Of a stretch of DNA of 60,000 nt, positions 5,053-50,756 are shown piece after piece. Within the stretch, counting starts at the first letter, position 1, and the number at the start of each line of letters is the position of its first letter. Source of the stretch: Callorhinchus milii (lineage: Eukaryota); contig NW_024704742.1 in NCBI RefSeq assembly GCF_018977255.1, positions 36,396,001-36,456,000 on the forward strand, written 5' to 3'. Position numbers and translations under genes: made by a program. The notes under the pieces are model-generated. The model was given only the letters and a program-made list of their open reading frames with translations, was not told the origin of the DNA and searched no databases.

Positions 5053-5271
5053 CTGGGAATGGAAAGAAATGACTATTAATACTCTACACTTAACAGATTT
5101 AAAAAAACACATGCAAACCAAAAAGATATCCTAGACAAAACTCCTTTAATCCACACAAATCTAAAATTACTTTCATTTCTGTGAAAAATATGAATTTACT
5201 GAAAAACATTTATTTAGTATTTTTATTATTAGCTTATGATAATTTTATTATTATTATTTATTTAAAAGGAA

Positions 5272-11269: not shown

Positions 11270-11836
11270 GGTGTGTAACAAAGGTGTGTGTGTGTGTGTG
11301 CATCTCATCCCAGTGTGTGTGTGCACAACTGACCCCCAGTGAGTGTGTATGTGTGTGCAACTCACCCCCAGTGAGTGTGTGTGTGGGTGTGTGCAACTCA
11401 TCCCGATAGTGAGTGTGTATGTGTAATTCACTCCCAATGTGTGTGTGTGTAACTCAAGCCCAGCGAGTGTGTGTGTGTGTGCAACTCATCCCCAGTGTGT
11501 GTGTGTGTGTGTGTGTGTAACACACCCCCAGTGAGTGGTGTGTGTGTGTGTAACATACCCTCAGTGGGTGGTGTGTGTGTAACGCACCCCCAGTAGGTGG
11601 TGTGTGTGTGTGTGTAACGCACCCCCAGTGGGTGGTGTGTGTGTGTGTAATGCACCCGCAGTGGGTGGTGTGTGTGTGTGTAACGCACCCCCAGTGGGTG
11701 GTGTGTGTGTGTGTAACGCACCCCCAGTAGGTGGTGTGTGTGTGTGTGTAACACACCCCCAGTGGGTGGTGTGTGTGTGTGTAATGCACCCGCAGTGGGT
11801 GGTGTGTGTGTGTGTGTAACGCACCCCCAGTGGGTG

Positions 11837-11867
<31 letters not shown>

Positions 11868-11890
11868 GCACCCCCAGTGGGTGGTTTGTG
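11270..11890. repeat. Compound minisatellite: AACGCACCCCCAGTGGGTG core separated by variable (GT)n
   Basis: Direct reading; accounts for the HT/CV-rich spurious ORFs. Confidence 0.95.
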
Positions 11891-12213
11891 TACCCCTGGC
11901 TCAGGAGTGGGTCTGACCTTTACCCATTTTTATTGAGCTCTCAGCATCTCTCCTTGACTATTTCTGTTCAGTCGATTAAAGTGCCATAGTTGCATAATAT
12001 AAATAACTGAAGCAATTCAGGCTTTAGAGATGCCTTAATAATAACTATTAACTGCTGGAGATTTACCTTTCATGTTTACAGTGATACCAAACCTTTTTTT
12101 CCCTTCAATTAAACTGAAAATTGATATCTCAGGACACTCTTGATCTGAAATTAACTATTTGTTGAGTATTTTTATAAATGTACAGTATTTATAAGAAGAA
12201 ATATGGTTATGAC

Positions 12214-38792: not shown

Positions 38793-39371
38793 TCAGACTG
38801 AACTCTCATCCGGTTTCTCCCCCAACTGAGTTTGTTTCCTCTTCTCCAGCTTCCTGCTCAGCTCTTCAGTGAAGGAGTGGTAATGGGGGGACGTGGACTC
38901 CATCTCGCTGGCCTGCCTCAGGAGCACGTAGCTGTTGCCGTTCATCTTCCTCGGTACGTGGGGAAGTCCAGGGAGCCCGTTGGGGGTGTCAACCAGTTTG
39001 GGGGGCAGTGGGGGAGTGGGCGGGGGAGGGGGCAGCTCCAAGTCGGCAGTCCTGTTGTTGTTGTGGAGTGAGTTGGTGCTGGGGGCCTGGCCGGGGATGA
39101 TCTTCAGGAAGCCCACCTGGTGGTCCTCTTCGTCAGACCCTTCCTCGCTCCTGGGCCCACAACTCCCGGATAGGTTCTGCAGCTCGATGTGGGACGGACG
39201 GCACAGTTGCACCTGGTACTTGCCTCTCTTGGACGGGGAGCAGAACAGGTAGATAGCAAGGATGGATGTTACTACGGCAACCGACCCCAGGAAGACGATG
39301 ATGGTCAGGTACAGGAACTCTCTGCCTGAGGAGATCTGAGCCAGGTGTGACGGAGGGGCCTCAGGCAACAT
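38793..39371 (-). pseudogene. SEMA4G: Intronic, 5'-truncated semaphorin-4G fragment (juxtamembrane, TM helix and full cytoplasmic tail); reading frame intact
   Basis: 192-codon ORF with a TM segment (FLYLTIIVFLGSVAVVTSILAIYLFC), LKIIPG, polyproline, RKMNGNSYVLLRQ, SFTEELSRKLEKRKQTQL and a C-terminal PDZ motif DESSV*, matching the SEMA4G tail. No sema/PSI/Ig exons seen in the window. Visibly GC-rich against the AT-rich intron. Confidence 0.85.
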
Positions 39372-40612
39372 ATATCAGGTTCCATTACGCTCAGATCTAT
39401 CCAGTTGCTTTGATCGATTCATACGTTTAGACTTTCTCTTCGGTGGAGTGTTCACGGGTGTCAACCGTTTGCACTTCTTTACTGTATATTGATGTGGAAA
39501 AATGTCCAAAAGCTTCACTCAATCTCCAAAAATCCACATCTCTGCAGCCTGCATTCTGTCCCTCAACAGCCTTCAAAAAAAACCTGAGCAGACAATTTTA
39601 AGATTTTGTCTTGCCCTTTAAATCTCTTCACCGTCTCCCCTCTCTCAGACAGAACTATGTTGAAAATCATCAAGTTATGCTGTAACTCAAATTAATCTCA
39701 ATGAAGCTGCCTATTTTCATGACTCCAGTACTATTTTGGCCCTGGTACAGTCCTGAATCCTATGGTGTATGGAGGATGTTGAGAATGTAAAGTAGCATGA
39801 AATACACAGAAAGAGGTCATTGTAATATGTACCGTGGAAATAAAAACAGCTGATTTACAAGGTATCCTTTAATAAAAGTCAGAGAAAGATGTTTTTGATG
39901 GCTCAGTGAGCTGAGCTACATTAGCTAAAATACCATTAGTGTTATAACAAAGTGCAATGGCCAGGCCTTCAATGCACACAAGGCCAATGCACACATTTGC
40001 TTCCTGCGTGTTGGTCGATTCCTGCACAAAGAGAAAAATGACCGTGTTTCAGGTCATCAGGTATTGGCCAGGAAACCAGCTGGCCTCACATGTATGGACT
40101 GAAACTGCCTATTCCTCCTTGTTAAAGCACAGGTTAGGGTTTCATGGGTTCCATTCACTGTTTTATAATGGGCTTTTCTGTATAGTCAAGGGAAATGAAA
40201 ATCTCCCATACAAGCAGCAAAGTAGGCAGTGACATTGGTGATGACTTTAATGACCTCGAAGCCAGACTTTTTTCTTGTGAAGTCGGTCCTGTTACAGGAC
40301 AGGAAATGCCAGGAAACTAGCTGACCTCACATTTCTGCACTACCACCAGCGATTTCTATAACCAGCTATATTTGCAATCACATTGTAACTAAATTTGCAT
40401 TTTAAAGAAGCTCATAACAGGTCTGTAATGTAAAAAGAAACAGGGAATATGGGACAAACAAAATTTACAGCGGAAAAAAAACCCCAAACACTTCAAACAA
40501 TGTCAAATGAAAGGTTTAGGACCAATTAGTTATTAAAAACAATAAGTGTTTTTTTTAAGAGAAATTATTGTCCCTAAATCCAGGGGAAAGCAAGAGATCA
40601 GTTGACACTACA

Positions 40613-41529: not shown

Positions 41530-41884
41530 ATAATAAATAATAATCCTTGCACTTGATATAGCGCCTGATCACGTCTTTGAGACGTCTCAAAGCGCTTCAC
41601 AGAATATATTGTAAAGTGAATTGACTGTATATTTTGTGGGAGAAAGCGGCAGTCAATTGTGCACAGCAGTGTCCCACAAACAGCTGGGTATTGAAGTGAC
41701 CAATTTATTATTATTATTTTTTTGAAGGAATTATTGCCCCTAAAAAAGCAATCTGCCAATCGACTAACAACCGGGTTCCTACTTACCACTAGATAAACAA
41801 GAGGCGTTTGGAGTAAGGAAACTTACTCAACATTTTGCCCTGCTGGGAATTGAGCCCAGGTCTCTGGCTTGTGAGGCGAGTCCT
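41530..41884 (-). mobile_element. Related older SINE subfamily; its tRNA head continues at 43788-43816 beyond the L2 insertion
   Basis: Tail and body similar to the young SINE; head split at GCGAGTCCT / GTCCTCTAACCACTGAGCTACAGGACTCC. Confidence 0.8.
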
Positions 41885-43787
41885 TCTACTCCAGGACAAT
41901 CCTGGAGGCGAAGAACAACCCCAGGCTTCTGTTCTCTACCACATCCCGACTCCTCCGTCCCCCCCGCAGGTCATCTCCTCCAACCTTCACTGCGAGGAGA
42001 TGCTGGATTTCCTTGAATCCAAAATCAAGGGAATCCGCACCGCGGTAACTGCCCCTCCCAACTTCCACCCAGCCCCCACCCTTCCCTCCCACACTCCGAC
42101 TCCTACCCATCCTCCCCTACACACCTTTGAACCCGTTTCCCCACCCTCTGTCACCAAACTCATTCTGTCCTTGAAATCCACCACCTGCTCCCTGGATCCC
42201 ATCCCCACTCCACATCTCCCAGCGCCACCTCCTTGCCCCACTTCTCACAGACACCATTAACCTGTCCCTCTCCTCTGGCTCTGTTCCCATTCCCCTCAAA
42301 ACTGCCACCATCACTCCCATACTGAAAAAACCCTCCCTTGATGCATCGCAGCTATCAAGCTACCGGCCCATCTCCAACCTCCCCTTCCTGTCCAAGGTTC
42401 TCGAAAGAGTTGTCGCCTCCCAGCTGCGCTCTTTCCTTTCCACCCACTCACTTTTGGAACTCCTCCAGTCGGGTTTCCGTGCTGCCCATAGCACAGAAAC
42501 TGCCCTGGTCAAGGTCACCAATGACATCTTGACCATCTGGAACCAGGGCTCCCTTTGCCTCCTCCTCGACCTATCGGCCGCATTCGATACGGTCGACCAC
42601 TCTATCCTCCTCCACCGCTTGTCCTCCCACCTCAACCTTCAAGGCCCTGTCCTTGAGTGGTTTAGTCCTACCTCTGCCACCGTCTTCACTTTGTCTCTGC
42701 AAACGGCTTTTCCTCCAGCCCCCGCACTGTCTCGTGCGGTGTCCCTCAGGGCTCTGTCCTCGGTCCCCTCCTATGTGCTCCCTCTTGGTGACATCATCCG
42801 CAGACATGGGGTTAATTTCCACATGTATGCGGATGACACCCAACTCTACGTTTCCTCTTCTACCCTCAAATCCACGACCACCGATGTCCTGACAGCTGCC
42901 TGTCCGACATCGAGTCCTGGACGAGAAACAACTTTCTTCACCTCAACGTGCACAAAACTGAGGCCCTCCTGATTGGCTCACGTCAGCACCTCCGCACCTC
43001 AGGCGCTGACACCATCAGCATCCAAGGCTGCACTCTCCACCTCTCAAAGCAGTCAGGAACCTCGAGGTTCTGTTCGACCCTGAGCTGTCCTTTCTTCCTC
43101 ATATCCGCACCACAAATGGCACTACATTCCATCACCTCCGAAACATCGCCAGACTGCGGCACTACCTCACCCCTCACGCTGCTGAAACTCTGGTCCACGC
43201 CTTTATCACCTCAAGGCTGTACTATGGGAACTCTCTCCTCGCCGGCCTTCCCGGCACCTCCCTCCACAAGCTGCAGGTCATTCAGAACTCTGCAGCTCGT
43301 GTACTGTCCCGCACCAGGCTTCGGGACCACATCACTCCCACCCTCGCTCGCCTCCACTGGCTCCCCATCCCCCAGAGGATCGAATTCAAGATCCTCATCC
43401 TCACCTACAAGGCCATTCATGGCCTCGCTCCCTCCTACCTCTCCGACCTACTATCCCCCAACTTACCTGCCTGTACCCTCAGTTCCTCTGGCTCCGGTCT
43501 GCTCCACACCCTCCGCCCTAACATCGGTGGCCGGGCTTTCAGCCTCTCAGCCCCTTCGCCACCTCCTCCCTTTCCTCCTTCAAGTCCGGTCTCAAGACCT
43601 TTCTCTTCAGCCTTTCCTTCAGCTCTCCTCTCGACTCTCTACCCCCTCCTCGCTCCCTTCCTTCCCTCCCCTCACCCTGACCATTTCCCCTCTGCTCGGG
43701 TCCCGACCTAACTGTGCAGCGCCCTGGTACGTTCTCCCGAAGTGAAAGGCTCTCTTTAAATGCAATCTTGTTATTGTTGTTGTTGTT
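41885..43787 (+). mobile_element. L2-clade LINE, 5'-truncated (~1.9 kb), frameshifted RT region plus 3' tail
   Basis: RT motifs QSGFRAAHSTETALVKVTNDIL, LLLDLSAAFDTVDH, GVPQGSVLGP and MYADDTQLY spread over several frames; (TTG)n tail; flanking GTCCT direct repeat. Confidence 0.92.
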
Positions 43788-49186: not shown

Positions 49187-49761
49187 CTAAGTAAAAGTCA
49201 AGAGAGAGATTATTTCACCAGTAAGTTACTATTGTGCCATCATTTTGCTTAGTTGAATTATCATCTTGTTTCAAACTTTATTCTCATTAGATATATCTCA
49301 ACACAACGACCTAAAACTTGATTTCATTACCTTAATTTTTCTTTGACATATTTTCAACATAGAGTTAATTATCACAGCAATCTCGCAAACATGATATGCT
49401 ACTCACAACGGGATTGCGATTCAAACTTTTTGTAACAATATTTGTAAATCACGCCAACACAAGTTCACTGCTACTAGTTATAGTGTGTGTGTATATATGA
49501 ATAGGGGGATGGGGATGGGTGTGTGTGTGTGTGGGTGTGCACATGTGTTGTGTGCATGTGTTTTGATGATACAATCAAGGAGACTTGGAAAATTCATGTT
49601 ACAAAAAATGCATCTCACAAACACAAAATCTACCACAATACTCTGAGAATTGTTGGTCGGTATTCCTTTTCTCCCATTTGCACTTTTACATTACTCAGAC
49701 CAAACTCTTTCCCCCATCTTAATTCTCACAGAAATGTCGCAAAACATTATATATCTTGCAG

Positions 49762-50016
49762 CAAAAACAGAAGTCGCTTGGAACACTCAACAGGTCAGGC
49801 AGCATCTATGGAGAAAGGAAAGTGAGTCAACGTTTCGGTTCCACGACCCGTCGTCAGAACAGTTCTGACGAAGAACAGTTCTGACGAAGGGTCATGGACC
49901 CGAAACTTTGACTCACTTTCCTTTCTCTATAGATGCTGCCTGACCTTACTGAGTGTTCTAAGCGACTCCTGTTTTTATTTCAGATTTCCAGAATCTGCAG
50001 TATTTTGCGTTTTGAT
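49762..50016. mobile_element. Palindromic non-autonomous element with hammerhead-ribozyme cores (Penelope-like)
   Basis: ~100-bp inverted arms; CTGACGA-stem II-GAAAC on both strands; 12-bp direct repeat TATATCTTGCAG at 49750-49761 and 50017-50028. Confidence 0.75.
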
Positions 50017-50756
50017 TATATCTTGCAGATTAGTTGATCAATTTACTTGAGACAACTTCCATTAGAACAAAGTCTGCCTAATATATAACATGTGGAAGTA
50101 GTTTGGGTTTAAAAAAAAGCAAACTTTCCATTAAACATAGCATTTTATAGACATTCAATTTTTTTTCTTTTAGATCGGTTACTTTCAGTTATTATGTGCA
50201 TTAGGAATGAATCATTTAATGACTTTGATATTACACTCAAGCTGAACAAAACAATTTGTTCAAAGGAAAGTCAAGAAAGTAACATATCATTCCCATATTT
50301 CCAAAATTTGTTTGGGAAGCAAGGGAAATAATTGAATGACTCCAAAATATAATTGGGAAGATATTATACAGATTGAATCCCTAGAAAGACAGAGCAATAA
50401 GAGTTGTCCTTTTCCTTACTTTCACAACATATATTAAAAGAAAACAAATGCCCATTGGTCATCCAGTTTGTTTATATGCAGGGACAGAAGGGGAGGAATA
50501 GCTACGCTGGTGCAAACACAACTTTCACATCAAACATGTATAACAACAATGAGGTACACATGAGCCTCTCATTTTCCCCTTGGCCTAATGAAGAAGTCCA
50601 CAGAGTTCAAACACTCAGAGCGATGTGGAGAATGCATCATCTAACAAATAACAGATACAAACCCAAAATGCACCACTAACCATGCCACCAACAAGTTCCA
50701 ATGTAAATGTGTCTGTTGCATGTACGAACCTCATCCAAAATATGTTAAACACGTAC

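Follow-up and report, generated by a model that had tools for sequence, protein, structure and literature searches.

An intron of the WDFY3 gene of Callorhinchus milii contains a palindromic insert with two minimal hammerhead ribozyme motifs placed back to back, which raises the question of what kind of mobile element left it there, and whether it moved in its present form. The initial annotation of the 60,000-nt stretch of DNA analyzed here (the window) had proposed a distinct non-coding, ribozyme-bearing retroelement that moved as a unit. We favor another origin: at a probability of roughly 0.85, the insert is what remains, after decay, of the insertion of a Penelope-like element (PLE) with an endonuclease, of which only the head-to-head pseudo-LTR (pLTR) ends are left, and as such it is an ordinary case of the insertion pattern already described for PLEs. 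At the locus, one repeat end is present in two copies arranged head to head, with a one-sided 37-nt tail, a long putative target site duplication (TSD), and minimal hammerheads, and the insert belongs to a high-copy family; the hammerhead and the tail, together with the inverted junction and the TSD, are the grounds for the proposed assignment to PLEs.

Host intron and anatomy of the insert

The minus-strand exons of the window match WDFY3, with the BEACH domain found among them; identity to the homologues is 75-83% for those named WDFY3 and 86-87% for unnamed ones. The exons flanking the insert-bearing intron were placed by tblastn (50936-50754 and 49186-48950), and the intron limits, 50756-49187, were taken from splice sites judged by eye (Table 1). 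No second copy of the insert is present in the 60 kb window according to blastn, which returned the insert itself, its inverted self-match, and three short matches with E values of at least 0.046.

The insert spans positions 49762-50014 (253 nt), forms a hairpin, and has no ORF-bearing part. The motifs, the arms, the 16-bp duplication, and the 12-bp flanking repeat were all found where the initial annotation had placed them. The inverted arms of ~100 bp that it described are real (75 nt at 92% complementarity plus 27 nt at 93%), with the addition of 37 nt on the right side (49978-50014) that had been missed; the insert is asymmetric, the right arm overshooting the mirror image of the left end by this length. 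The two arms differ by 11 mismatches in 105 aligned columns and by one indel, which appears to be as expected under neutral decay.

The 12-mer is repeated exactly on both flanks, and a direct repeat of at least 12 bp at matched spacing was met by chance in 10 of 5000 random position pairs. The TSD reported at 12 bp is exact, and could be longer: when the end of the element is taken at 50014, the right flank has ATT as its first letters and, allowing for a difference of one TA unit, agrees with the left flank over 14 bp. Since the relatives of the insert end at 50013/50014 (see below), the duplication may measure 14-16 bp and start with ATT. No empty-site joint was found among the 15 joints listed of 151, and the TSD is accordingly a putative one.

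Table 1. Features of the insert and its host intron, named according to the PLE reading (positions in the window)
Feature	Position	Strand	Remarks
Host WDFY3 intron	49187..50756	-	1,570 nt, GT-AG; contains the insert
Putative left TSD	49750..49761	+	exact over 12 bp; 49746-49761 under the longer reading with a TA slip
Putative inverted, tail-less copy of PLE pseudo-LTR end	49762..49860	-	ribozyme sense on the minus, i.e. WDFY3-sense, strand
Predicted minimal type-I hammerhead	49826..49860	-	core and palindromic ACGT intact; stem II broken by a G.A mismatch at 49839; stem I of 3 bp; predicted to cut after 49829
Palindrome at the head-to-head junction	49851..49871	.	21 nt, 1-nt center at 49861
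Tandem duplication	49856..49889	+	period 16, microhomology of 2 nt; creates an extra CUGACGA box that lacks a stem II
Putative direct copy of PLE pseudo-LTR end	49877..49977	+	
Predicted minimal type-I hammerhead	49878..49912	+	perfect 5-bp stem II; position 16.2 (49907) is T, stem III not palindromic; predicted cut after 49909
One-sided extension, putative PLE tail	49978..50014	+	37 nt
Putative right TSD	50017..50028	+	exact over 12 bp; 50015-50028 under the longer reading

Hammerhead motifs

The descriptor used for minimal hammerheads consists of CUGANGA, an optional bulge, a stem II that is 4-8 bp long and has no more than one mismatch, GAAA, NNUH, and a 3-bp stem I. In the 60 kb it matches only at 49881 (plus) and 49857 (minus), and it matches nowhere in 100 windows simulated at equal trinucleotide composition; the two matches are copies of one motif and hence not independent. 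Both arms thus carry the PLE-type minimal hammerhead that had been recognized by inspection, with one complete motif per strand in head-to-head arrangement.

The plus-strand motif is composed of GTT (49878-80), CTGACGA (49881-87), a bulged A (49888), stem II (49889-93 paired with 49897-901), GAAA (49902-05), CTTT (49906-09), and GAC (49910-12). The corresponding boxes of the minus-strand motif are CTGACGA (49857-51), GAAA (49836-33), and CGTT (49832-29). Stem II is fully paired only in the plus copy, the minus copy having a G.A mismatch there. The palindromic stem III (the four letters after G12-A14), in turn, is preserved on the minus copy (ACGT) and lost on the plus copy (ACTT). Each arm bears a lesion of its own, and the insert is a decayed copy.

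A search with the Rfam hammerhead models, proposed earlier as a check, gave no match at E≤10, either in 801 nt around the insert or in either arm alone; the ribozyme call therefore rests on the descriptor and on the published motif. The 801 nt gave 13 Rfam matches at E≤10, all below the gathering score, and the best of them are miRNA-hairpin models lying on the generic stem, while each arm alone returned one unrelated weak match. The top match (49826-49913) is to the plant miRNA precursor MIR6136, with 47 bits against a gathering score of 99, and probably reflects nothing other than a generic long hairpin.

Central junction

The 16-mers at 49856-49871 and 49872-49887 are identical, as had been described; the period-16 match is in fact 18 nt long, from which a 2-nt microhomology in the duplication follows. 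At an arm divergence of ~10%, two 16-mers would remain identical with a probability of ~0.19, therefore the duplication cannot be dated. It would have arisen by a slip at the head-to-head joint, during the insertion or afterwards. In the first option, an initial turn-around was aborted and the 2-nt microhomology then allowed re-annealing; the second is later replication slippage; the sequence fits both equally.

Relatives in sequencing-run contigs

Contigs from 4 of the 24 sequencing runs listed were aligned on positions 49600-50300 at 80% likeness (9,146, 10,991, 9,716, and 2,284 contigs per run). The summed depth, which is not a copy number, stays at 0-9 in the flanks; on the arms it ranges from thousands to hundreds of thousands. 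Each contig is assigned to the arm that it fits better, so that the site frequencies given here are biased. In run X1 the base that repairs the stem II pairing at 49839 accounts for 70,934 of 75,540 summed depth, and at 49907 G (23,140) and A (11,062) make up most of 37,914; in most relatives the hammerhead bases are intact at both positions damaged here. Conservation is imperfect: G12 (49902), a CpG site, is read as A in 8,701 of 55,189 depth in X1. Loose ends behind 49836 (128, 157, 127, and 38 contigs) have an alternative stem II, the first pair of which is A-U replacing G-C, a compensatory change in a second subfamily. The conservation of the core and of stem II was assessed, among the positions listed, from depth tables and loose-end consensus rather than from an alignment of copies. 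The initial annotation would have been contradicted by a family consensus lacking the conserved boxes and a covarying stem II; the relatives show the opposite, since most of the depth repairs both lesions and the second subfamily exchanges one stem II pair for another. Position 49960 was considered as a variant common to both arms against the family and was dropped, given the assignment of contigs to the best-fitting arm and the mirror site not being listed as variable in X1.

The loose ends accumulate before 49762/49763 and behind 50013/50014, with an AT-rich consensus (agreement ~0.4), and the relatives stopping at 50013/50014 number 110-229 contigs per place in X1, X3, and X4. The left pile combines genuine ends with copies running on into the tail, so that the right end alone is a clean family terminus. 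Another 96-116 contigs per run exit the insert behind 49860 into sequence that is not its mirror image. Of the many relatives that leave exactly at 49860-49861, some share a few upstream letters by which the 5' strand of stem I would carry a pyrimidine-rich CAG (agreement ~0.4).

As regards the locus itself, locus-specific contigs cross the left junction in X4, at 3 differences, and in X1 and X3 they cross the right junction with 0 differences; the lack of cover left of 49744 in X1 and X3 is uninformative. No contig spanning the whole locus is found among the pieces listed. Among the 24 runs listed, none recorded as RNA contains the insert stretch, and run X5, only guessed to be RNA, was not counted as evidence of expression. 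A 21-nt arm pattern was found once in metagenome contigs, where the similarity does not extend past the 21 nt and the match is due to chance, and not at all in viral contigs.

Did the insert move as a unit?

The proposal of movement as a unit, in its strongest form, is that of a non-autonomous palindromic mini-element with a fixed center, transcribed and retrotransposed whole by PLE proteins. It agrees with the clean TSD surrounding the whole hairpin, and non-autonomous PLE derivatives are known (PMC8557442; bioRxiv 10.64898/2026.07.22.740005, from the accessible parts of both). The summed depth in X1 falls to 37-67 at 49866-49874, against 4,396 at 49853 and 39,684 at 49894. Palindromes are under-assembled and de Bruijn contigs collapse them, so a low central depth could mask a common fixed center, and a few contigs do cross a similar one (records 1-3 in X1, 9-12 in X3, and 18 in X4, among those listed). 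The crossing contigs, however, mostly have 6-8 gaps, one having 3; they agree neither with the window nor among themselves, and show different letters at 49865-49875. Furthermore, the joints into 49878 have varied starting points (49811, 49830, 49836, and 49838), 96-116 contigs per run go past 49860 into non-mirror sequence, and the one-sided tail is what synthesis at each insertion predicts, according to the available text of PMC11167929 and PMC8557442. A tail together with a palindromic junction corresponds to the published PLE products, and the idea of a distinct element moving as a unit is not supported and appears improbable. The evidence favors centers made afresh in the relatives at each insertion from a longer parent, as far as contigs can tell.

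A broader proposition, which we consider unlikely yet worth stating, is that either the family is an ORF-free, fixed palindromic mini-retroelement moved whole by PLE proteins, or the template RNA had a defined 5' stop shortly ahead of stem I, which the center marks, the 16-nt stutter being what is left of a first turn-around that the reverse transcriptase aborted. If true, the thousands of centers would constitute a genomic record able to decide between twin priming and fold-back, an open step of PLE transposition.

Proposed origin as a PLE insertion

Under the preferred reading, that of a decayed PLE insertion, the ribonucleoprotein of the element would nick both strands of an AT-rich target, staggered by 12-16 bp. 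The template would be the uncleaved element RNA: both copies include the whole hammerhead, and therefore the template was presumably not cut there. Reverse transcription would begin at two internal start sites, the distal one giving the tail on one side and the proximal one giving no tail on the other; alternatively, a single cDNA start would be followed by the cDNA turning back on itself. Synthesis would stop 3-4 nt upstream of the hammerhead CUGA box, leaving the palindromic head-to-head joint, and the hammerheads would be passengers that mutated separately since the insertion. The insert fits twin priming and fold-back alike. In the published account, as far as available, the PLE protein cuts and extends both strands with a preference for ATT, the tail equals the distance between two internal reverse transcription starts, and uncleaved RNA is the main substrate (PMC11167929, Frangieh et al. 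2024); the hammerhead of the PLE termed PAc cleaved only when the protein was present (PMC11167929).

One plus-strand frame stays open for 45 codons (49880-50014), through the arm and the tail. Published pLTRs include the first ORF codons. The 45-aa translation of this right-arm frame, one of six, had 0 hits in one protein search, and in a second 14 candidates, none at E≤10. A link to an RT/GIY-YIG ORF was not found from this one frame, and many relatives run upstream of 49860.

The single locus matters little, being decayed repeat debris within an intron. Its value is that of one among many natural records of how the tandem and inverted PLE ends form, a process called an unresolved step in the accessible portions of PMC11167929, PMC8557442, and PMC3846280. 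Such hairpins also mimic miRNA precursors, as in the sub-threshold Rfam MIR matches, and MITEs in annotation.

Folding and the WDFY3 transcript

The insert folds with -174.3 kcal/mol (z = -19.8), and 0 of 200 shuffled sequences are equally stable, whereas the motifs folded alone are no better than shuffles (z of 0.85, -0.69, and -0.93). The initial annotation had supposed that the long hairpin masks the ribozyme, and the models bear this out: the predicted unpaired probability in the hairpin is at most 0.023 for the CUGACGA core and at most 0.003 for GAAA, and the minus-strand core is paired with a probability above 0.97, at a cost of 27.8 kcal/mol to free it. Since each strand has only one of the two motifs, the cleavage as a dimer that had been suggested does not apply in cis. 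The WDFY3 pre-mRNA would contain the minus-strand motif only, seated in a ~100-bp hairpin and with no partner on the same strand; with its core buried as well, cleavage of the pre-mRNA by this hammerhead is predicted to be unlikely.

An adoption by the host, as an intronic ribozyme or a hairpin regulating WDFY3 RNA, would draw on the orientation of the minus motif, which lies in WDFY3 sense inside the intron with the core and the palindrome kept, and on the long double-stranded RNA that the hairpin would form in the pre-mRNA. The stem II mismatch, the 3-bp stem I, the missing same-strand partner, and the paired core (>97%) speak against it, single minimal hammerheads gave no cleavage in vitro in the available text of PMC4209133, and the arms have diverged (11 of 105 columns) as neutral decay predicts, making this explanation very improbable. 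Least credible, close to negligible, is a MITE or fold-back DNA transposon with the arms as terminal inverted repeats and the hammerhead-like boxes as incidental, which would account for a short, high-copy sequence with long inverted arms and no coding capacity, but not for ends that are not mirror images (the 37-nt overhang), a TSD of at least 12 bp, a complete descriptor match absent from the 100 simulated windows, or the compensatory stem II pair of the relatives. In this respect the earlier view of a retro-insertion unlike DNA transposons holds, given the one-sided tail and the TSD of 12 bp or more.

Of the left arm it may be added that, in WDFY3 sense, positions 49825-49803 contain a pyrimidine tract followed by AG (49807-49806) and ATG, which by eye resembles a cryptic splice acceptor; this tract is buried inside the insert hairpin.

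Other features of the window

A fragment of a LINE ORF2, frameshifted and containing an RVT_1 domain (E 4e-17), lies at 41817-43745 (plus), and shorter pieces with similar translations are present near 5254, 15827, 20181, 32023, 34188, and 35588. A 193-codon open frame at 38793-39374 (minus) combines a hydrophobic, transmembrane-like stretch with a proline-rich part; it is unmatched by four WDFY3 homologues and may belong, as an exon, to a gene that lies within an intron of WDFY3. The low-complexity tandem repeat at 11428-11929 yields three long spurious open frames.

Comparison with known systems

Titles and abstract beginnings in the literature gave no specific account of the insert's family in cartilaginous fishes, nor of PLE-derived, MITE-like hairpins. 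The family may already be named in Repbase or Dfam, or in the supplements of PMC4209133 or bioRxiv 10.64898/2026.07.22.740005. The comparisons below follow the accessible parts of the cited papers.

The non-LTR animal retrozymes share with the insert a short, non-coding sequence, a type-I hammerhead, and an origin from PLE pLTRs. They are composed of tandem same-strand units (Li et al., bioRxiv 10.64898/2026.07.22.740005), with head-to-tail hammerheads, in contrast to the head-to-head, opposite-strand motifs found here; with one complete motif per strand, identification of the insert as a retrozyme was rejected.

The minimal hammerhead is defined by a bulge after A9 and a palindromic 15.2-16.2 segment (PMC4209133, Cervera and De la Pena 2014). 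The insert has in common with those of metazoan PLEs the CUGANGA box, the single bulged base before stem II, G10.1-C11.1, GAAA, the palindromic 15.2-16.2 without loop 3, the short stem I, and the close opposite-strand pairing; opposite-strand pairs 100-700 bp apart are reported, and a single motif gave no cleavage (PMC4209133). It differs in a stem II of 5 bp, compared with 7-8 bp in the Schistosoma families, and in the damage to both copies. Cartilaginous fishes are not named in the available part of this account. In the Penelope of Drosophila virilis, an intron ends at the place equivalent to 49860-49861 (PMC4209133).

Like the insert, PAc (Poseidon, green anole) has a hammerhead ~90-125 nt before the end of the element, two alternative ends, and an uncut hammerhead in the inserted copy, and it shares a target starting with ATT if the longer TSD reading holds. 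In contrast to PAc, no ORF start is seen at stem II of the insert, and the resemblance carries no assignment to a clade (Poseidon or Neptune).

In the insertions of endonuclease-bearing PLEs, an inverted, 5'-truncated copy adjoins the 5' end, and a tail of 30-40 bp is often present at one end only (PMC8557442, Craig et al. 2021); an inverted pLTR, a 31-bp tail, and TSDs of 8-10 bp have been described (PMC3846280, Arkhipova et al. 2013), together with palindromes at head-to-head junctions that the authors interpreted as self-priming (PMC3846280). The insert is distinguished by the 16-nt duplication at the junction, by a TSD of 12-16 bp compared with 8-10 bp in the rotifer examples, and by keeping only the pLTR ends, in 253 nt with no ORF. 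The head-to-head inverted copy, the palindrome at the junction, and the tail of 30-40 bp at one end are the same in both, as would be, with the flanking repeat taken as a TSD, a duplication of roughly 10 bp in an AT-rich target.
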